A DNA stretch of 64,000 bases. Source: Candidatus Geothermarchaeota archaeon. GTDB taxonomy: Archaea; Thermoproteota; Nitrososphaeria; Geothermarchaeales; JDFR-13. The notes beneath the pieces were generated by a model. That model saw nothing but the letters and a program-made list of their open reading frames with translations. It ran no database searches and was not told the DNA's origin. Location of the stretch: positions 2,669 to 66,668 of the forward strand of contig WAKC01000001.1 in assembly GCA_015523605.1 (NCBI GenBank). The letters are read 5' to 3'. Position numbers and translations under genes: made by a program. Positions within the stretch are counted from its first letter, which is position 1. Each line of letters begins with the position of its first letter. Positions 2,678 to 31,196 of the stretch are shown here, in pieces.

Positions 2678-3955
2678 TCAATTAAGTTTTTCAACCGCCT
2701 CTCTATATATCTCGATGACCCAGCTATATCGATCTGAAGATTCATATCTATATTTAACCGGCCTATACACATCGATGAAACTCTTCCAATCACCACCTCT
2801 ACGCATAATAAGATATAGATAGGCACCATATAGAGAAGCTCTATCATTACCATCCCTTACAACTACATCGACATCAGCAGATTCAGCTATCAATCGTGGG
2901 ATCAATGGATTCCCTACACCCCCTCCATCCAAATACACCTCCTTAAAATCTCTAATCTCCCGTAGAACCTCAATATACATCCCCACAGAACCCACTAGAG
3001 AGAGGACCACATCCCTCAAGGAATACCCCTCAGACTCTACATCTATAGCCTTCGGTGATAAGGTAGACCTTAGAAGAGGGGGATAAACCTTATAGGAGGA
3101 CTCTCCAATATCCACCTTAGATATAGATTCATATCCAAACCCAAACCTCTCCAAATATTTATCCAGTGATACACCCCAATCGAATATAAACCCTTCAGCC
3201 ATATAATGGGGGGTACCATCCATATAGAAAGACAACATGGGGTTAACCCCCTTATCTGGATCACCAATTAACTCTCCACCTGTATAGACATCGATAAAGG
3301 CACCAGTCCCCAGGGTAGCCTTTGAAACCTCAAGACCCTCCGATACCAATGAGGCTGATTGGTCAGGTATCATGAGGATTGGTACCCCCTCCTCAACACA
3401 CTCCCGGTATGAATCAACAAGTCTTGGGAGTCGGTCTATATCCAATTCAAGCCTCTCAATGAGGTAATCTATATACCTGGGTTCGATAGGGTCTAACAAG
3501 CCATATGGATAGGCATATGAATAGTCGACTATATACTCACCGGTTAAGAGCCACGCCACATAACTCTCGATACCGCCGACGTATCTATGGCCCCTCTCCT
3601 GTAGATATTTAATCCTAAGAGCCCCCGAACCAGGCCTAATAAAGAGATTCAACATGTAATCCTCTGGATCAAGATATTTCCGGCGATATTCTATATCGAT
3701 CTCAGATCTCCAGGTATATATATTACTAGATGCTCCAGAGGAATCCCACCCTATTATAGAGGCTCTCTGACCCGTAATAATATAAAGATCATACTTATTC
3801 CTAACATCTTCAGCAACCTCTCTAAAAAGGCTTGGATCTAGAATCCCATCCCCACCTACAACCTTAAATACTCTATACTCTCCAGCAGCCCCATCTACAA
3901 ATTCTAATGTCTTAAGCCTAGTAGAGCCCAAATCAAAAACAAATATCCTCTCCAT
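2678..3955 (-). CDS. FGGY-family carbohydrate kinase, short form (425 aa)
   Basis: N-terminal FVFDLGSTRLK (DxGxT phosphate-1 motif). ITGQRASIIGWD resembles the glycerol-kinase NQRET..W motif. C-terminal DGGG motif. Confidence 0.6.
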   Translation of the reverse strand: MERIFVFDLGSTRLKTLEFVDGAAGEYRVFKVVGGDGILDPSLFREVAEDVRNKYDLYIITGQRASIIGWDSSGASSNIYTWRSEIDIEYRRKYLDPEDYMLNLFIRPGSGALRIKYLQERGHRYVGGIESYVAWLLTGEYIVDYSYAYPYGLLDPIEPRYIDYLIERLELDIDRLPRLVDSYRECVEEGVPILMIPDQSASLVSEGLEVSKATLGTGAFIDVYTGGELIGDPDKGVNPMLSFYMDGTPHYMAEGFIFDWGVSLDKYLERFGFGYESISKVDIGESSYKVYPPLLRSTLSPKAIDVESEGYSLRDVVLSLVGSVGMYIEVLREIRDFKEVYLDGGGVGNPLIPRLIAESADVDVVVRDGNDRASLYGAYLYLIMRRGGDWKSFIDVYRPVKYRYESSDRYSWVIEIYREAVEKLN

Positions 3956-6175: not shown

Positions 6176-6954
6176 AGTACCTCACCCCCTAGATAGGCAG
6201 ATATAACTTCGGACATCTGTATAACTACATCCGGCTTATCATATGCCAGGACAGACCCGTCATACATAACCATAAGCATATCGGAGACCTCCCTAACAAC
6301 GTCTAGGTCATGCTCAACGACAATGAAGGATACATTCCTCTCCCTACGTAGACTCTTTATAAGATCAACCATCTCAAGCTTCTCCGAATAGGTGAGGCCA
6401 GAAGTCGGCTCATCCAAAAGCAGAACCCTAGGGCTCTGGGCAAATGAGAGGGCGATATCAAGCTTCTTACGCTCGCCATGGGACAACTCACTACCATATT
6501 TATCTATTACCTCCTCAAGCCTGAATATATTCACTACATTATCGACTATCTCTTCCACATCCTCATAAAATCCATATCCCCTGTTAAACCGGGTCATACG
6601 CTTCTTATAAGCCAATACGGCGAATCTAATGTTGTCCCTAACCGTCAGACCATCGAAGATATTAGGTATCTGGAAGCTTCGGCCGACACCCAAGAAGGTG
6701 ATGTAATATGGAGGCTTACCAGTGATATCTATTCTACCTCTCTCCCCATAGACGTAAACCCTACCATCATCCGGCTTTATAATGCCGCTCACGAGATTCA
6801 AGAGTGTAGTCTTCCCAGCACCATTAGGCCCGACTATAGATAGGATCTCACCCTGTGAGAGGGTGAATGAAACGTTATTAACTGCATGGACATTTCCAAA
6901 CCATTTATGGAGGGAGACTCCCCCCAAAACCACCTTATCTCCTTCCCCTGACAT
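6172..6954 (-). CDS. livG: Branched-chain amino acid ABC transporter ATP-binding protein
   Basis: Walker A GPNGAGKTT, LSHGERK, LLLDEPTSG. I prefer the ATG at 6954 over 6990 because the longer form overlaps livM extensively. Confidence 0.85.
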   Translation of the reverse strand: MSGEGDKVVLGGVSLHKWFGNVHAVNNVSFTLSQGEILSIVGPNGAGKTTLLNLVSGIIKPDDGRVYVYGERGRIDITGKPPYYITFLGVGRSFQIPNIFDGLTVRDNIRFAVLAYKKRMTRFNRGYGFYEDVEEIVDNVVNIFRLEEVIDKYGSELSHGERKKLDIALSFAQSPRVLLLDEPTSGLTYSEKLEMVDLIKSLRRERNVSFIVVEHDLDVVREVSDMLMVMYDGSVLAYDKPDVVIQMSEVISAYLGGEVL

Positions 6955-12652: not shown

Positions 12653-13090
12653 CTAATGACCTGCTTCACCATTGGTTGAGTTTCCCATATATTGATGCAT
12701 CATATTCATACATTCCTGATGCATTTGATCCATATCCATGTTCATATGCATATCCATGCCATTCATACCCATCATATGTTGCTGCATCTGAGCCATATCC
12801 ATACCGTTCATCATTGGACAGTTCATAGCGCCTGACATCATGCCTCCACCCATCATACCGTTACCCATCATCCCATTGGCCATCATACCGCCGTTCATCA
12901 TTCCACCGCCCATGCCCCCCATCATTCCACCAGGCATCATGCCATTACCCATCATGCCACCAGCCATAGGCTGAGTAGACATTCCTAGTATATTCCATCC
13001 CATCATGTTACCTGGAAAAGCCGCTGCGATTCCGAATCCCAGCACCAGTAGACCGATCAATCCTATCAAAAGATATCCTAGACCTTTCAT
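12653..13090 (-). CDS. Membrane-anchored, extremely methionine/glycine-rich protein (41 Met in 145 aa); putative extracytoplasmic soft-metal (Cu/Ag) binding or redox-buffer protein
   Basis: Uninterrupted 145-aa ORF with one N-terminal hydrophobic anchor (GYLLIGLIGLLVLGFGIAAAF). This is followed by GGMM/NGMM repeats and MDMHMNMDMDQMH. It has its own TATA-like element, an SD-like GGTGAT before the ATG, and a downstream oligo-T. Confidence 0.6.
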   Translation of the reverse strand: MKGLGYLLIGLIGLLVLGFGIAAAFPGNMMGWNILGMSTQPMAGGMMGNGMMPGGMMGGMGGGMMNGGMMANGMMGNGMMGGGMMSGAMNCPMMNGMDMAQMQQHMMGMNGMDMHMNMDMDQMHQECMNMMHQYMGNSTNGEAGH

Positions 13091-13116
13091 ATCACATCAC
13101 CATCCATACCTATGTG

Positions 13117-13165
13117 TTGAAACATTATTTAGAAGGTACTTGAAACGGTTGAAACGGTTTATAAA
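13117..13165 (-). promoter_or_regulatory. Promoter/operator region of the Met-rich gene: TATA-like TTTATAAA, tandem 9-bp repeat and a third half-site
   Basis: Read on the minus strand: TTTATAAA (13165-13158). Next comes CCGTTTCAA twice in tandem (13157-13140), and then GTTTCAA again (13123-13117). Confidence 0.45.
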
Positions 13166-13738
13166 CTAAGATGTTTCACCGTCTTCCGATGATCTCCCAC
13201 TATATTTCTCTAGAATCCAATCGGCAAGGATGACCTCATTAGTATTTCCAACCGGCTTCCTACTCACAATATTCCTCTCCTCAAGCCTCTCAATAACCCT
13301 ATGAATCTGAACCCTATTCATACCCAGTTCCCAGCGTAGATCCTTCTGGAGCATTTTACCGCCATTCTTGATTAGTAGATCAACAACCATCTTCTCATCT
13401 GGTCTCAAGACCTTAAATATATCAGGCTCTTCCTCAGTCTTCTCAACAGGATTCCTGATAGGCTTGGAAACTGTCTTCTCAGGACCTTTATAACTTTTTT
13501 GAGTAAGGAGATAGATGATACCCACGACTATGATTATGAAGAATACAAGGAAGAACCAGAATGGGATAAACATATTAAACATATGCATACCCATATCCAT
13601 CATACCATCCATCATTCCCCAATTCATGGGATTCGTTCTCCATCCCATGAATAACATCATAAACATTGGTATTCCTAATATGAGGAGGAATATAGCCAAT
13701 ATTATTATGAGAAAAGTCCTCATAAACTCTTCTGACAT
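13166..13738 (-). CDS. Membrane-embedded winged-helix transcription regulator with a Met-rich loop between two TM helices
   Basis: TM1 is FLIIILAIFLLILGIPMF. The loop is MGWRTNPMNWGMMDGMMDMGMHMFNM. TM2 is FIPFWFFLVFFIIIVVGIIYLL. These are followed by a Lys-rich linker and a wHTH (LRPDEKMVVDLLIKNGGKMLQKDLRWELGMNRVQIHRVIERLEERNIVSRKPVGNTNEVIL). Start taken at the ATG at 13738; the longest ORF reaches 13804. Confidence 0.65.
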   Translation of the reverse strand: MSEEFMRTFLIIILAIFLLILGIPMFMMLFMGWRTNPMNWGMMDGMMDMGMHMFNMFIPFWFFLVFFIIIVVGIIYLLTQKSYKGPEKTVSKPIRNPVEKTEEEPDIFKVLRPDEKMVVDLLIKNGGKMLQKDLRWELGMNRVQIHRVIERLEERNIVSRKPVGNTNEVILADWILEKYSGRSSEDGETS

Positions 13739-14154
13739 ACCCAAATCCCAATAGATAGATAGAGACAAAGGGAAATAAATGATATGACTATATAATTTTT
13801 CCAATAGATGTATATCTGAAACCCGGCGGGAGAAAATCTATTCTGTTAACCAATCCAATCATCTCCAACCATCTAATAACCAATTCAAAGCGTTACGAGA
13901 AGTAGCAAGGGTTTTAATATGATAGGTTTTAGAGATGGAAAACACTAATTCCTGTACAATGGTGTAACAATAACTTTATAATAGGAGAAGGGTAAATAGA
14001 TATCCCTTTTATATATAAATCTAATAATATGGAAGAATTAATCCTCTGTCAAAAACAGTTAGAAATGATTTATAAGTAATTTTATGTATTGATGTATTGT
14101 AACCGATTAATAGCTAGTCTCACGAGGTTGAGATCTTGCATATTAGTGGAAGAA

Positions 14155-15322: not shown

Positions 15323-16447
15323 TTACTCAATAATCTCGATATACCATGTAGGGTGGATCTCACTCCAAGATCCATGATCAGTATCCACAACCCAGACACC
15401 AACTATTCTAACCCTGTCACCCTTCTCAGGAACTATAACTACATCTTGATCATCAGGTACAATCTCAACATGTATAGCTCCCTTCCTCAATATCCAGGAG
15501 CCAATCGATAGCATATGTTCATACTCCGGATCCAACCTAACATCGAAGACTATATCCCCATCCTCCACCCTATTAATCTCAGATACAACTACACCCTCTA
15601 CAGTTACACAGGTCTCCAGAATCCTGAGCCTCATAGGGTCGTAAGTAGCTATAAATACATTACCCTCCCTACAATAGGGACCTTCAACCCTCTGTAGCCA
15701 CTGCTCCCCAACCCACGATTCATATTTATATGGATATAAGGCGATTTCAACGTTATAAGCGAGATAAGGCATCGAGATGGCTCCAGCACCTGCCAAGAGT
15801 ATAAAGGATAGAGCCACAAACTGTTTATACAACCTACCACTTCTAAGCATATACAAGACAAGTAGAAATGCTAATACACCGATGTTTAAAACCGCTGCAT
15901 AGAAATACGCCGCCGAAAAATAGTATATAACCATATAAATAAGTGGAACTACAGCCCCAAAAGTGTCTCCCTCCCTATATCTAGTATACGATAGATATAT
16001 GAATGGTAGATATAATGCAGAGAAAATGCCTAGTCCAACCTCAATAGCGTCTCTACCATAGTATAGGAGGCCGAGAGATAGAGAAATAAGGTTATCAAGT
16101 ATAACAATACCTAGTATGACAGTCATAAACCTCTTAATATAACCCTTCTCAATTCCAAATGCCAATATAAAGAGTAAGAGACTCCTAAGGATTAGAGATA
16201 AGACCGCAACTATAACGAATGTAGACCCAGTATGGATCAATATAGCTGAGCCTATAAGATGAGCTAGGAGGAAGAGGGCGGCTCCCTTAAGAGGACGAGT
16301 AAACAATAGAGAGATCATCATCGCAGGGATTATAAGACCATAACCCACTAGGATATTAGGGACGTTAATCAAGAGTGTAACACTGAATAGACTAAACAGA
16401 AATATAGATACATCCTTAAGTCGATGACCAATATGGACATACATCAT
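15323..16447 (-). CDS. Hypothetical polytopic membrane protein with a C-terminal soluble beta-rich domain
   Basis: About 7 TM segments followed by a roughly 140-aa domain ending GDRVRIVGVWVVDTDHGSWSEIHPTWYIEIIE. I cannot name a family. Confidence 0.5.
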   Translation of the reverse strand: MMYVHIGHRLKDVSIFLFSLFSVTLLINVPNILVGYGLIIPAMMISLLFTRPLKGAALFLLAHLIGSAILIHTGSTFVIVAVLSLILRSLLLFILAFGIEKGYIKRFMTVILGIVILDNLISLSLGLLYYGRDAIEVGLGIFSALYLPFIYLSYTRYREGDTFGAVVPLIYMVIYYFSAAYFYAAVLNIGVLAFLLVLYMLRSGRLYKQFVALSFILLAGAGAISMPYLAYNVEIALYPYKYESWVGEQWLQRVEGPYCREGNVFIATYDPMRLRILETCVTVEGVVVSEINRVEDGDIVFDVRLDPEYEHMLSIGSWILRKGAIHVEIVPDDQDVVIVPEKGDRVRIVGVWVVDTDHGSWSEIHPTWYIEIIE

Positions 16448-27807: not shown

Positions 27808-28059
27808 TTAGGAGCAACATCCACAGCCTTTATCCCCATGTTCATGATGATGTCCATGGCCGTGTTCATGCCCATGTTCATGGTGATGTTCCATGCCAGG
27901 CATACCCTGTGGACCATGTTCAAGATAAAAGTCTGGCTTCTCCTCAAAAGCCGTCTTACATTGTGGACTACAGAAGTAGTAGATAGTACCCTTATATACA
28001 GTCTTTGCAGCAGCGTTTGAAGGGTCCACCTCCATTCCACATACCGGATCCTTTGCCAT
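27808..28059 (-). CDS. YHS/TRASH-domain metal-binding protein with a His-rich tail ending GCGCCS
   Basis: DPVCGMEV....YYFCSPQCKTAFEEKP is the YHS/TRASH signature. The tail is MEHHHEHGHEHGHGHHHEHGDKGCGCCS. Lies directly downstream of copA. Confidence 0.8.
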   Translation of the reverse strand: MAKDPVCGMEVDPSNAAAKTVYKGTIYYFCSPQCKTAFEEKPDFYLEHGPQGMPGMEHHHEHGHEHGHGHHHEHGDKGCGCCS

Positions 28060-28132: not shown

Positions 28133-30586
28133 TCACTCGAGACGCTCCCTCTTCATCAATAGTGCATTTCCAGTAACGGATATTGAGCTTAGAGCCATGG
28201 CCGCACCAGCGTATTCAGGTCTCAATATTATACCCATAGGCGCCAATACACCTGCCGAGATCGGAATTAATATTACGTTATAGATGAATGCCCAGAATAG
28301 ATTGAAGATTATTTTTCTCTTAATCTTCTTACTGATCTTTATAGAGGTGTATACGCCTGATACTGTATTCCTAACTATGATTATGTCGCCCGCCTCCTTT
28401 GCAATATCTGTGCCTCCACCCATGGCGAACCCTACATCGGCTTGTGTGAGGCTTGGTGCGTCGTTTATACCGTCTCCAACCATGGCAACGACCTCACCTC
28501 TCCTCTGTAGCTCTTTAATCTTCTCCGTCTTATCCTCAGGGCTTACCTCCGCAAAGACTTCATCAATACCCAGTTTCTTAGCTATGGCCTTCGCAGTCAC
28601 CCTATGGTCTCCAGTCAACATAATCACTTTATAGCCTTCCCTCCTAAGTTTTTCAACCACCTCTTTAGAATCCTCTCTAAGGGTATCTGCGACGGCGATT
28701 AGCCCGGCTAAAACACCGTCTATAGCTACATAGATAACTGTTTTACCCTCATCCCTAAGACTCTCCACATCCTTCTCAGCCTTGGATACATCTACTTCAA
28801 ACCCCTTCATCAACCTATCATTTCCAAGAACGACGGTCCTACCATCTACCACTGCATATACACCCTGGCCAGGGATATACTCGAAATTCTTAGGCTCTAT
28901 AAGGTCACCGACAGTCTTGGATGCCTTCTCAACTATAGCTACTCCAATAGGATGTTCACTCCCCTTCTCTGCGGAGCCTGCAAGTCTCAGGATATCCTCC
29001 TCTGTAAAGCCATTGTAACATATTACATCCGTGACTTCGGGCTCGCCTTTGGTAAGTGTTCCAGTCTTATCAAAGACTATAGTCGTTAGAGTATCAATCT
29101 TCTCCAAAACCTCGATATTCCTAATTATTATCCCCTTCTCAGCAGCCTTACCAACACCTACTGATACTGCTGTTGGTGTAGCCAATCCTAGGGCACAGGG
29201 ACACGCCACAAGGAGAACAGCTGCGGTAAACATAATGGCTAGGGATAGCTCTACACCTATTATGAAATACCATGTAATGAATGTTACAGTAGCTATAGCC
29301 ATTACTATCCATGTAAAATATCCAGAGATTTTATCCACAAGCTTCTGAATAGGCGGTTTTGCAGACTGTGCATATCTAACTAGCTTTATAATCTGGCTTA
29401 GTACTGTCTCTCTACCAACCCTTGTGGCAATCACCTTGAGATATCCAGATTTTAATATCGTACCTGCAAATACTGGGTCCCTCTCCTTCTTCAGAACAGG
29501 TATAGGTTCACCAGTCAACATGGACTCATCTACATATCCCTGCCCCTCGATGATAATCCCATCGACAGGGATCTTCTCACCAGACTTTATCACCACGGTA
29601 TCTTTGACCCTAACCTCTTCAATAGGTATCTCCATCTCCACGCCATCCCTGATAACCAATGCATTCCTACTCTGTAGCTCCATCAACTTCCTAACGGCCT
29701 CACCAGTCCTAAGCTTCATCTTAACCTCCATATACCGACCTAGGAGGATGAAACCGATTACCACAGCTGCAGCCTCAAAGAATACCTCCTCAGACTCTAT
29801 CAAACCGAAGAAGACTGCAGTACTGAATACATATGCAGCGCCTGTACCCAGTGCTACAAGGGTATCCATATTCGCAGTTCTATTCCTTAGGGCCCTTATA
29901 GCCCCGACATAGAAACGCCTGCCAGCAAAGAATACAACAGGTGTACTTAAGAGGAACCCTATCAAACCATAATATTCTTTGAATGGGAGCGGTATCCCGA
30001 AGACCGGGAGAGTAGTGTATATCATGAGTGGTATTCCGAGGGCTAGACTCAGTATAACCTGCCACCTCAACTTCCTCAATTCCTCTTCAACCACCTTCCT
30101 CTCGATATCCTCAACCTCGGCCTTAGTATCAACCTTCTCGACCTGGAAACCAAGCTCCTCTATCTTCCTCTGCACCTCCTCAAAGGATATAGTCATAGGG
30201 TTGATCGTTACATAGACCGCCTTAGAAACATGGTTAGCCTTTACCTCTATAACACCCGGATTCTTCATCAAGCTATTCTCAATTAGAGACTCATCATCAA
30301 CTGTGGACAAATTCTTTACTATGAACCTACCCTCCTCTTTATAAACATCATATCCAACCTTCCTAATCTCCCTAACAACATCCTTAAGTGATATCTTGAA
30401 GGGGTCATATTCGATGACTGCCTCCTCAGCTGTCAGACTTACTGATACGTCACCAACACCGGGCAATTTCTTAGACGTCTTTTCAATGGTTAATGCACAG
30501 GTGGCACAGTGCATACCAATGATCTTGAGACGCTCCTTCTGCCTAGCTTCTAACTTAGTTTCCGCACTTTTATCTGTCACAACCAT
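28133..30586 (-). CDS. copA: Copper-translocating P1B-type ATPase
   Basis: HMA domain GMHCATCA, TGEP, CPC (ACPCALGLATP), DKTGTLT, SEHP and GDGINDAP. Start set at the ATG at 30586 (MVVTDKS). The 898-aa ORF-track version extends through the divergent promoter. Confidence 0.9.
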   Translation of the reverse strand: MVVTDKSAETKLEARQKERLKIIGMHCATCALTIEKTSKKLPGVGDVSVSLTAEEAVIEYDPFKISLKDVVREIRKVGYDVYKEEGRFIVKNLSTVDDESLIENSLMKNPGVIEVKANHVSKAVYVTINPMTISFEEVQRKIEELGFQVEKVDTKAEVEDIERKVVEEELRKLRWQVILSLALGIPLMIYTTLPVFGIPLPFKEYYGLIGFLLSTPVVFFAGRRFYVGAIRALRNRTANMDTLVALGTGAAYVFSTAVFFGLIESEEVFFEAAAVVIGFILLGRYMEVKMKLRTGEAVRKLMELQSRNALVIRDGVEMEIPIEEVRVKDTVVIKSGEKIPVDGIIIEGQGYVDESMLTGEPIPVLKKERDPVFAGTILKSGYLKVIATRVGRETVLSQIIKLVRYAQSAKPPIQKLVDKISGYFTWIVMAIATVTFITWYFIIGVELSLAIMFTAAVLLVACPCALGLATPTAVSVGVGKAAEKGIIIRNIEVLEKIDTLTTIVFDKTGTLTKGEPEVTDVICYNGFTEEDILRLAGSAEKGSEHPIGVAIVEKASKTVGDLIEPKNFEYIPGQGVYAVVDGRTVVLGNDRLMKGFEVDVSKAEKDVESLRDEGKTVIYVAIDGVLAGLIAVADTLREDSKEVVEKLRREGYKVIMLTGDHRVTAKAIAKKLGIDEVFAEVSPEDKTEKIKELQRRGEVVAMVGDGINDAPSLTQADVGFAMGGGTDIAKEAGDIIIVRNTVSGVYTSIKISKKIKRKIIFNLFWAFIYNVILIPISAGVLAPMGIILRPEYAGAAMALSSISVTGNALLMKRERLE

Positions 30587-30610
30587 CACCAATTTTTTTG
30601 TACCAATACA

Positions 30611-30634
30611 ATTATATTTAAATAGGTATATAAA
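30611..30634. promoter_or_regulatory. Back-to-back TATA-like elements in the copA / regulator divergent intergenic region
   Basis: Palindrome TATTTAAATA (30615-30624) lies about 29 nt from the copA ATG. TATATAAA (30627-30634) lies about 26 nt from the regulator ATG at 30660. This spacing is consistent with leaderless transcripts. Confidence 0.4.
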
Positions 30635-30659
30635 CTTTCTATTAATAGGGGTGTGCCAT

Positions 30660-31196
30660 ATGGGGATTCCACATGTATTTAGAATTGACGAGGTGAAGGC
30701 CCTATCAGATGAGGTTAGAATCACTATATTAGATATGCTTAGTAAGAGGCCCATGAGTGTCCAGGAGATCACTGAGGAGTTGAAGAAGAGAGGGTTTAAC
30801 AAGAGTATAAACGCGGTTAGATACCACATTAAACTGTTGAAGGAGAGTGGATTGATTAACCTTGTTAAGGTGGTTGAGGTTAGAGGTGGAGTCCTAAAGT
30901 ATTATGCAACATCGAAGGATGTATATCTATATGAGGAGCCTAAAAACATCGATGAGCTTCTAAAACCATTCATAGATAGTATAAAAGATGATGTCAAAAG
31001 GATAATTATCAGGGTTTTGGAGGAGAAGCATGACGAGGTTGTAGATACCGCTAAGAATCTAAAGCCATGTCCATACTGCTATACAGAACATTTCGTCGAA
31101 CACATTATCCTAGAGAGTTTCAAGGGAGCCGTTGGAGAAGTCCTTAAAGATGGGGAAGTTAGGGAGTTGATATCTAAATATATCAAGGGGGATTAA
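30660..31196 (+). CDS. ArsR-like winged-helix transcription regulator with a C-terminal Cys/His motif; putative metal-responsive regulator of copA
   Basis: ALSDEVRITILDMLSKRPMSVQEITEELKKRGFNKSINAVRYHIKLLKESGLI is an ArsR-type wHTH. C-terminal KPCPYCYTEHFVEH motif. Divergent from copA. Confidence 0.7.
   Translation: MGIPHVFRIDEVKALSDEVRITILDMLSKRPMSVQEITEELKKRGFNKSINAVRYHIKLLKESGLINLVKVVEVRGGVLKYYATSKDVYLYEEPKNIDELLKPFIDSIKDDVKRIIIRVLEEKHDEVVDTAKNLKPCPYCYTEHFVEHIILESFKGAVGEVLKDGEVRELISKYIKGD

Follow-up and report, generated by a model that had tools for sequence, protein, structure and literature searches.

A conserved gene pair of Geothermarchaeota encoding a two-helix transmembrane winged-helix regulator and a methionine-rich exported protein: a candidate module for sensing soft metals outside the cell

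Here we describe two adjacent genes on the minus strand of a 64,000-nucleotide stretch of DNA (hereafter the window) from a Candidatus Geothermarchaeota archaeon (assembly GCA_015523605.1, contig WAKC01000001.1), which is uncultured and comes from the hot subsurface. The first gene (13166-13738, −) encodes a 190-aa transmembrane transcription regulator, identified from its open reading frame (ORF), a Pfam match, its homologues and an AlphaFold2 model, and composed of an N-terminal tail, a first transmembrane (TM) helix, a Met-rich outside loop, a second TM helix, a disordered linker and a winged helix. The second (12653-13090, −) encodes a 145-aa, ultra-Met-rich exported protein, supported by its ORF, its composition, its non-synonymous and synonymous substitution rates (dN/dS) and the presence of homologues 3′ of the regulator in every related locus. 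An earlier note, made from the sequence of this DNA alone, had singled out the two as a candidate module and read them as a transmembrane metal sensor with an extracellular metal sponge or, alternatively, as a sacrificial buffer against Met oxidation. Its description of the regulator (two TM helices, a Met-rich outside loop, a Lys-rich linker and a winged helix) is borne out by Pfam, AlphaFold2 and charge statistics, with a loop of 26 residues, and its count of 41 Met in the small ORF is correct.

Although the regulator ORF was listed from a TTG at 13804, all homologues begin at an ATG equivalent to 13738 (with MSEEF or MTDDA), and we therefore take this ATG as the real start. At 9.5% Met, the regulator is the richest in this residue of the 56 window ORFs of at least 150 aa that served as background (mean 2.7%). 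TM1 (residues 8-31; 13646-13717, −) is a hydrophobic stretch conserved in the alignment and lies within a helix (3-31) of the AlphaFold2 model, which was built from 10 sequences. It is followed by an extracytoplasmic Met/His loop (residues 32-57, GWRTNPMNWGMMDGMMDMGMHMFNMF; 13568-13645, −), proposed as the sensor on the basis of its conservation and the composition of the wider family. Met accounts for 10 of its 26 residues; M46, M47, G50, M53 and F54 are invariant, and M42, M43, G45 and H52 nearly so. The 13 Met that the earlier note had reported for a 33-residue stretch (MFMMLFMGWRTNPMNWGMMDGMMDMGMHMFNMF) were likewise counted. In the model, a low-confidence turn (32-42) leads into a second helix (43-83), in which the Met-rich segment runs into TM2 (residues 58-80; 13499-13567, −), where P59 and W61 are invariant. 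The Lys-rich cytoplasmic linker (residues 81-106; 13421-13498, −) is predicted to be disordered (predicted local distance difference test, pLDDT, below 50 for 82-104) and varies in length and sequence among homologues. The remainder forms the winged-helix domain (13184-13420, −; modelled at 107-185 with a pLDDT of ~88), whose recognition helix NRVQIHR is invariant within the clade. Among 87 two-TM representatives of the wider family, which were used for both positive-inside and loop-composition statistics, the density of Lys plus Arg is 27% in the N-terminal tail, 2.5% in the loop and 12% after TM2. This distribution supports a loop on the outside and a winged helix on the inside, the latter being the placement that DNA binding requires.

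The winged helix was recognized by Pfam (DUF7343 and MarR_2) and by Foldseek. DUF7343 (PF24034) alone passes its gathering cut-off, with 39.2 bits against 27.6 over residues 113-171, and it is also found in all 11 close homologues. MarR_2 (22.7 bits, cut-off 27) and MarR (13.5 bits, cut-off 24.6) fall short, as do TrmB and GntR, and there are no N-terminal dimerisation helices as in the MarR family, the N-terminal half being a TM hairpin. In the PDB, Foldseek ranks winged helices of the ArsR/SmtB and MarR families highest (AntR 6uvu, SmtB, CzrA, MexR and NolR). The likeness to ArsR/SmtB is structural only: HTH_5 (PF01022) is absent from the regulator's Pfam matches, and the protein is membrane-embedded. 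Nor does it group with ToxR- or CadC-like proteins, given that its winged helix is C-terminal and has no Trans_reg_C match, that it has two TM helices and that it lacks a folded outside domain. As modelled by AlphaFold2, two hydrophobic helices and a winged helix in one polypeptide do give it the architecture of the transmembrane transcription regulators (TTRs). The earlier note had not recognized the pair as a described system. For the regulator this no longer applies, since it falls within DUF7343 and the described TTR class.

The small protein contains 41 Met (28%), 35 Gly (24%), 13 Asn, 5 His and 2 Cys, with eight GMM units and four MxxH/HxxM motifs. Beyond residue 24 its Met share is 33%, close to the one third first estimated for the ectodomain. 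It shares with its homologues a hydrophobic N-terminus, Gly/Met repeats of variable length and a C-terminal module in which two Cys accompany several Met and His. At the N-terminus, residues 1-24 (13019-13090, −; ending AAA) form a putative signal peptide or membrane anchor that has a conserved hydrophobic core and is modelled as a helix (3-24). It consists of MK and 20 hydrophobic residues, followed by a small-x-small motif (AAA, VSA, ATA or AVA) that is kept in most homologues. Because the helix ends with this conserved AxA motif, the protein may be secreted, not anchored; of the N-terminal anchor in the original description the helix stands, and the tethering is in doubt. The following Gly/Met region (residues 25-90; 12821-13018, −) is built of GMMGN-type pentads with a tandem period of 15 nt at the DNA level (9.2 copies at 12836-12967, Tandem Repeats Finder), and AlphaFold2 predicts disorder for residues 29-101 (pLDDT <50; mean pLDDT 48). 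The C-terminal Cys/His/Met module (residues 91-145, CPMMN ... MQQHMM ... QECMNMMHQYM ... H; 12656-12820, −) was delimited by alignment and model. C91, E126, C127, M128, M131, H132 and M135 are invariant in the four closest Met-rich homologues, weak helices are predicted at 99-107 and 120-135, and the terminal His is present in most homologues. The copy number of the pentad (GNGMM/GGMM) varies among close relatives: locus L006 (2824-3150) has at least 14 perfect GNGMM copies, and in L005 (~6830-6940) the repeat broke the assembly and left a run of N. The length of the repeat thus seems to evolve fast. A signature said to be common to both proteins, N-x-M-x-GW/NWGMM, does not recur in either the loops or the partners of close relatives and is not conserved. 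Searches with the small protein found no family in Pfam and NCBIfam at E ≤ 1 and no chain among PDB sequences at E ≤ 10, and there is no Pfam match to the Spy/CpxP/ZraP family (Metal_resist/LTXXQ).

Read on the opposite strand, an ATG codon becomes CAT, which encodes His, and an ORF of such composition could be the mirror image of a His-rich gene on the other strand, or a tandem repeat without coding function. The window itself contains a mirror artefact of this kind, a spurious 60-aa 'Met-rich' ORF at 27838-28020 (+) that lies antisense to a genuine His-rich YHS gene; the plus-strand ORFs opposite the pair are His-rich as well, and some relatives have long open stretches in antisense frames. 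In the window, however, the antisense frames are broken, reaching at most 60 codons, and they are inconsistent among relatives, whereas the minus frame is the sole frame open in all six homologues compared. In that frame, dN/dS is 0.009/0.30 relative to L001 and 0.058/0.99 relative to L014 (ratio 0.03-0.06). The features conserved in sense orientation include the N-terminal hydrophobic segment or signal peptide, a GGTGA Shine-Dalgarno sequence, a TATA box and the operator discussed below. Since the minus frame is intact, dN/dS is low and sense-orientation signals are conserved, we take the Met-rich gene to be real, on the minus strand and under purifying selection, and an artefact to be exceedingly improbable. 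An antisense His-rich product is rejected by dN/dS and the frame comparison, and with it the opposite-strand gene that the earlier note had allowed for. The plus strand of the whole window is skewed (A 32.5%, T 26.0%, C 23.2%, G 18.2%), which fits mostly minus-strand genes and a purine-rich coding strand.

The closest homologues of the regulator were sought among 5.8 billion clustered proteins, and a metagenome scan was run with a 12-sequence alignment. Eleven close homologues share the start of the window protein. In every contig that reaches past the regulator, a same-strand Met-rich ORF follows 70-77 nt 3′ of it (L001, L002, L003/L004, L005 with an assembly gap within the repeat, L006, L008, L009, L010, L012 and L014). 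The order of the pair is kept in all 13 related loci of Geothermarchaeota/Nitrososphaeria, so that the co-occurrence in relatives which the earlier note proposed to look for was found, and the pair has been retained while the regulators diverged to 52-54% identity. The related records are metagenome-assembled genomes labelled Candidatus Geothermarchaeota, Nitrososphaeria archaeon or Thermoprotei archaeon. Judged by sequence, the genes are conserved as a two-gene module, in agreement with the original proposal, together with a conserved promoter/operator between them.

This regulatory region was examined in a spacer alignment of seven loci (A8). A conserved A/T block (TAAATAA or TATATAA; 13125-13131, −) marks the putative TATA box of the Met-rich gene. 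A tandem direct repeat 5′ of it, CGTTTCA-AC-CGTTTCA (13141-13156, −), is a candidate operator whose boxes 1 and 2 (13150-13156 and 13141-13147) lie 9 bp apart, and box 3 (TGTTTCA, in relatives CGTTTCA; 13118-13124, −), with an invariant GTTTC, directly follows the TATA box. All three CGTT[T/A]CA boxes have invariant cores in the alignment. Additionally, a Shine-Dalgarno-like GGTGAT (13096-13101, −) is located 5 nt 5′ of the ATG, and its GGTGA is conserved in 7/7 aligned loci. The tandem box occurs once in the window, where 0.01 occurrences are expected. It is found exactly once, just past the regulator stop, in each of the 13 related loci scanned (L001-L012 and L014) and in none of 88 other loci. 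There is no further tandem box in the window or near copA of L003/L010. The looser YGTTWCA has 23 window sites, four of them within 13118-13172, of which three are boxes 1-3. An Rfam search of the spacer and untranslated region for an RNA element gave no match at E ≤ 1. These features suggest that the Met-rich gene has its own promoter under a sequence-specific factor, for which the adjacent regulator is the obvious candidate. Archaeal repressors classically bind between the TATA box and the start site, and boxes 5′ of the transcription factor B recognition element and TATA box can activate. The boxes here occupy both kinds of position, and either sign of regulation would fit them. The sequence directly after the regulator stop, TTTATAAA (13158-13165), was considered as a promoter and rejected, as it is absent from more distant loci. 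On the other side of the regulator, a lone TGTTACA at 13963, 225 nt 5′ of the gene, and two copies of a 10-nt tandem repeat (TCCAACCATC; 13854-13874) sit in the divergent spacer between the regulator and an AdoMet decarboxylase gene, and these might control the promoter of the regulator itself.

To delimit the regulator family, 1.84 billion cluster representatives were searched exhaustively with a profile; 1,944 of them matched at E ≤ 1e-3, and 237 reached E ≤ 1e-10. Many of these proteins are 160-220 aa long, with the match spanning both TM helices. By profile similarity the regulator is thus not a one-off; it is part of a large, uncharacterised archaeal family already modelled in Pfam as DUF7343. 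Across the 87 two-TM representatives, the mean Met content is 13.3% for the loop and 1.7% for the cytoplasmic part; 66 of the loops have at least three Met and 60 an MM dipeptide. A recurrent loop motif is (W)MxxMMxxMMG, a spacing that would align all thioethers along a single face of a helix. In a second large subfamily the loop reads GGFGGRGHGMG, and its one named member is a hypothetical protein of Candidatus Bathyarchaeota. No family member has an informative protein name, and a paper on the copper-limitation transcriptome of N. viennensis gave no link to the family. Haloarchaeal plasmids gave distant matches, two-TM 'MarR family' proteins that lack a Met loop.

We compared the neighbourhoods of 100 loci sorted by loop type by searching their ORFs with reference proteins. 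The 54 GRGHG-loop loci include 47 with an exported Cys-rich partner, 21 with a VIT1-family transporter and 15 with an ArsR gene, and none with a P1B ATPase, a cupredoxin or a Met-rich partner. Among the 33 Met-loop loci, together with L098/L099, 15 have a Met-rich exported neighbour, five a P1B-type ATPase, four a cupredoxin and none VIT1; in both sets the loci were not dereplicated, and the counts overstate their independence. The P1B ATPases accompany Met-loop regulators in three lineages (L003/L010/L011, L015 and L050), as do the cupredoxins (L033, L098/L099 and L100). Pfam confirms the VIT1, cupredoxin, P-type ATPase (with HMA in L015) and ArsR neighbours. The neighbour genes covary with loop type, a suggestive case of guilt by association, and loop composition seems to encode the class of ligand. 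Metal-gene neighbours of Met-loop relatives in independent lineages also lend the soft-metal reading of the pair indirect support.

Several of these neighbours deserve description. The GRGHG-subfamily loci (L016-L092) carry, at a fixed distance of 132-139 nt, a divergent gene for a 100-120-aa exported protein rich in Asp, Arg, Gln and Cys, for example at L020 2382-2723 (−) with the regulator at 2860-3375. This partner has LLQTQDRDRLRTQD-type repeats and CxCxC and NRICNCTMNLEQYR motifs and belongs to no Pfam family. Homology with the Met-rich partner is not supported (hhalign probability 2%), and we regard the two as analogous. In some of the loci that have it, the VIT1-family gene overlaps the stop codon of the GRGHG regulator; in the others it is no more than ~1.4 kb away. 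On the Met-loop side, L047 encodes, 3′ of the regulator, an anchored protein that carries (GGMMN)x6 and matches PepSY weakly, short of the Pfam cut-off. L098 has a multicopper oxidase near the regulator and a His-rich membrane protein weakly resembling NicO. In L094 a convergent gene encodes an anchored Met/His/Cys-rich protein whose CP...EECLEYMNSHM is like the CP...QECMNMMHQYM of the window protein, although hhalign finds no significant relationship.

A small exported partner in both subfamilies could also be explained by an envelope-stress module that works by partner switching and has no metal ligand. The Met stripe would then be a hydrophobic docking surface and the Met-rich protein its cognate modulator or chaperone, the signal arising when the partner is titrated by envelope proteins that are unfolded or hydrophobic, or by a perturbation of the S-layer or lipids. 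Docking by 'methionine bristles' is known from the SRP54 M domain and calmodulin, and CpxP-CpxA, ZraP-ZraS and ToxS-ToxR would be comparable pairs. Such a mechanism would account for the GMM-type composition common to loop and partner on the same side of the membrane, for the MxxMMxxMM spacing along one helical face and for the dedicated exported partner at a fixed distance in the GRGHG subfamily. It could also draw on a match between the Met-rich family profile and a bacterial Metal_resist (Spy/CpxP/ZraP-type) protein with N-terminal GMMG repeats; that match (E = 1.8e-3, 28% coverage), however, is restricted to the low-complexity repeat. Most Met-loop relatives have no stand-alone Met-rich partner and nevertheless keep the loop, which is therefore unlikely to exist only for partner binding. 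Moreover, the genes found nearby have specifically to do with metals (P1B ATPase, cupredoxin, multicopper oxidase, ArsR and VIT1). We therefore judge partner switching without a metal to be unlikely.

With regard to the soft-metal reading, the window also contains a cop island ~15 kb from the pair with a regulator of its own, as the earlier note had pointed out. It comprises an ArsR-type (HTH_20) regulator with a C-terminal CPYCYTEH motif (30660-31196, +), a P1B-1 CopA with MHCATC and CPC motifs (898-aa ORF call; 28133-30829, −) and, just 3′ of CopA, an 83-aa YHS/TRASH protein (27808-28059, −), conserved in L003, whose His-rich tail, HHHEHGHEHGHGHHHEHG, ends with CGCCS. The ArsR gene overlaps the 5′ end of the CopA ORF call and the L003 CopA has 811 aa; the true CopA start is probably further downstream. 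In L003 and L010 the same ArsR-CopA-panB block lies 2.3 kb from the pair, so the larger distance in the window is attributed to rearrangement. The absence of the boxes from the cop promoters fits a separate circuit. Another conserved neighbour of the pair is a 364-374-aa multi-TM protein with a C-terminal soluble domain and without a Pfam match (window 15323-16447, −; L003 4861-5955; L001 3292-4416; L005 3378-4493). In L003 its gene ends 46 nt 5′ of the regulator on the same strand, and it may belong to the module.

The same architecture might serve another role or another metal, either as a copper acquisition and delivery 'fishing line' induced by copper limitation or as a sponge for Hg(II), Cd(II) or Au(I). 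Membrane-anchored cupredoxins of the plastocyanin/azurin family are encoded at L033 1114-1674 (−), L098 7065-7610 (−) and L100 4364-4966 (−), within 1.5 kb of Met-loop regulators in three unrelated lineages. The linker between their anchor and copper domain is rich in GMM/GMG, with up to 22 Met in 181 aa, which suggests a part in the metallation of copper proteins and speaks for acquisition, as the separation of the module from the efflux pump in the window does for a different role. The Cys pair of the small protein, in turn, would favour Hg, Cd or Au. Set against this, no cupredoxin or oxidase adjoins the pair in the 13 Geothermarchaeota-type loci, the proximity to ArsR-CopA in L003/L010 points to detoxification, and no mer genes were noted near the pair. 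A different role or metal within this architecture accordingly has, in our view, a small chance of being correct.

The alternative already raised in the earlier note was that of a Met-oxidation sink. As an extracytoplasmic oxidant sensor, the regulator would have its loop Met oxidised by HOCl, H2O2 or chloramines, and the induced protein would scavenge these at the cell surface. HypT is an example of a regulator activated by Met oxidation. The extreme Met content and surface exposure of both the loop and the small protein would suit this function, and disorder would leave every thioether accessible. Yet no MsrA or MsrB motif was found in the 64-kb window, and no MsrA/MsrB/MsrP-type motif in it or among the called neighbours of related loci; a sink without re-reduction outside the cell would be costly. 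Furthermore, the conserved Cys pair, the His residues and the cupredoxin, P1B-ATPase and multicopper-oxidase neighbours would be left unexplained, and many family members come from lineages of anoxic sediments, such as Bathyarchaeota. The idea has thus lost ground on the missing reductases and is otherwise kept as a rival, though quite an unlikely one.

Taken together, we infer a module in which a one-component TM sensor of extracytoplasmic Cu(I) or another soft metal would control a disordered, SilE/PcoE-like Met sponge, in parallel to a cytosolic ArsR-CopA-YHS arm. We assign this reading a probability of about 0.5. The regulator would sit in the membrane with its N-terminus inside, its 26-residue Met/His loop outside and its flexible linker and ArsR/MarR-like winged helix inside, where the latter would bind the three CGTT[T/A]CA boxes flanking the TATA box, two in tandem upstream and one between the TATA box and the transcription start. 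Cu(I), Ag(I) or another soft metal accumulating outside, possibly through export by the CopA encoded ~15 kb away, would bind the Met stripe of the loop. A change in the TM hairpin would then alter occupancy of the boxes, leading to synthesis of the Met-rich protein. Once exported, this largely disordered protein, with ~40 thioethers, two Cys and five His, would buffer the metal in the pseudo-periplasm, and it may also act back on the loop, either as a competitor for metal or through direct binding to it.

Several observations weigh against this soft-metal model. Its link to metals is one of gene neighbourhood, a metal-related neighbour is present in only about half of the Met-loop lineages, and the independence of the locus counts is, as noted, overstated. 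In the window, 15 kb separate the pair from copA, and the cop promoters lack the boxes. Met stripes can also serve in protein-protein or hydrophobic-ligand recognition and in redox sensing. The small protein has no detectable homology to SilE/PcoE, CusF, CopM or a PDB chain, and recognisable homologues of it are confined to a narrow clade, two word-indexed searches having returned five relatives and one repeat-only match. Homology with the L094 partner is unsupported (hhalign 1%), although an ECxxxMxxHM motif aligns, and the two are best regarded as analogous. Furthermore, from the box positions alone, which are compatible with repression or activation, the direction of control cannot be told, and none of the papers searched mentions DUF7343.

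An extension of the model to the whole family is conceivable. Hundreds of two-TM DUF7343 proteins with a loop of 20-40 residues could be the first archaeal one-component TM metal sensors, with the loop as the whole sensor and its composition setting the metal. Loops of the MxxMMxxMMG type would respond to Cu(I)/Ag(I) and control Met sponges, cupredoxins or P1B pumps, and GGFGGRGHGMG loops would respond to Fe/Mn or another hard metal and control VIT1 and a Cys-rich protein. The window pair would then be the cleanest example and its small protein a new kind of Cu(I) buffer. We offer this extension tentatively, as an attractive possibility somewhat more apt to fail than to hold.

To our knowledge, metal sensing in archaea has been described almost only for cytosolic regulators (CopR/CopT-type, ArsR and others), and we know of essentially nothing on how archaea, which lack an outer membrane, monitor metals beyond the cytoplasmic membrane. 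If the soft-metal model is correct, the window regulator would be a minimal, compact extracytoplasmic sensor, in which a 26-residue loop acts through a TM hairpin on a winged helix with a defined three-box operator, and the small protein would represent a new class of disordered thioether sponge. A function would thereby be provided for a Pfam domain of unknown function that is found in hundreds of uncultured lineages of Thermoproteota, Bathyarchaeia and Nitrososphaeria. The two subfamilies would amount to a natural experiment on how loop composition programs ligand specificity, with parts small enough for biosensor engineering. Should one of the rival explanations prove true instead, the family would still be an unstudied envelope-signalling system.

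In CusF, CopC, the 'Mets' motifs of Ctr1 and the Met-rich inserts of CueO and McoP, Cu(I)/Ag(I) is bound by thioethers, alone or together with His, in a compartment that is extracytoplasmic and oxidising. Their MxM and MxxM spacings are similar to those of the window protein. In these proteins, however, the ligands form defined sites in folded domains or short N-terminal tails, whereas the window protein has a disordered stretch of ~65 residues and a 55-residue module without a known fold. The winged helix of the regulator finds its best structural matches in repressors of the ArsR/SmtB and MarR families (AntR 6uvu, SmtB 1smt, CzrA and MexR), of which AntR, SmtB and CzrA are metal sensors. Unlike the window regulator, these are soluble dimers whose metal sites are cytosolic and lie within or next to the winged helix; the window protein shows no evident site of this kind, and its candidate sensor lies across the membrane.

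TTRs, including ToxR, CadC and the archaeal ArnR/ArnR1, have been surveyed and are common in archaea; none of those described in the survey is linked to metal sensing, and the word 'metal' is absent from its text (PMC10269533). Like the window regulator as proposed here, they are one-component proteins with a membrane anchor and a DNA-binding domain in the cytoplasm, and they perceive signals outside and bind promoters at the membrane. ToxR/CadC-type regulators also use direct-repeat operators, as the candidate operator of the window would be. In contrast to the N-terminal OmpR-type winged helix, single TM helix and folded periplasmic domain of ToxR and CadC, the window regulator has a C-terminal ArsR/MarR-type DUF7343 winged helix, two TM helices and a loop of ~26 residues as the putative sensor. 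Closer in sensor layout is CopS of C. glutamicum, in which two TM helices enclose a 31-aa loop with His and Met residues that have been proposed to recognise copper, and which acts beside the cytosolic CsoR (PMC3140484). CusS/CopS and the window regulator are alike in having two TM helices around a short outside loop and a parallel cytosolic copper sensor, the ArsR-CopA-YHS arm being the one proposed here. CusS/CopS are nevertheless histidine kinases acting with a response regulator, whereas the window regulator has a fused winged helix, no sequence homology to them and a loop far richer in Met. Finally, SilE and PcoE are His/Met sponges, disordered until they fold on Ag(I)/Cu(I); they are encoded beside a sensor and have been proposed as a first-line buffer (PMC5008109). 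The window protein is likewise small, exported and predicted to be disordered, has MxxH/HxxM motifs and is encoded next to a sensor-regulator gene. It differs in having no detectable homology to SilE/PcoE, a composition of 28% Met and 24% Gly in GMMGN pentads, a Cys pair, variable repeats and a host without an outer membrane. By analogy, then, SilE/PcoE are the proteins that it would functionally most resemble, as a counterpart and not as a member of that family.

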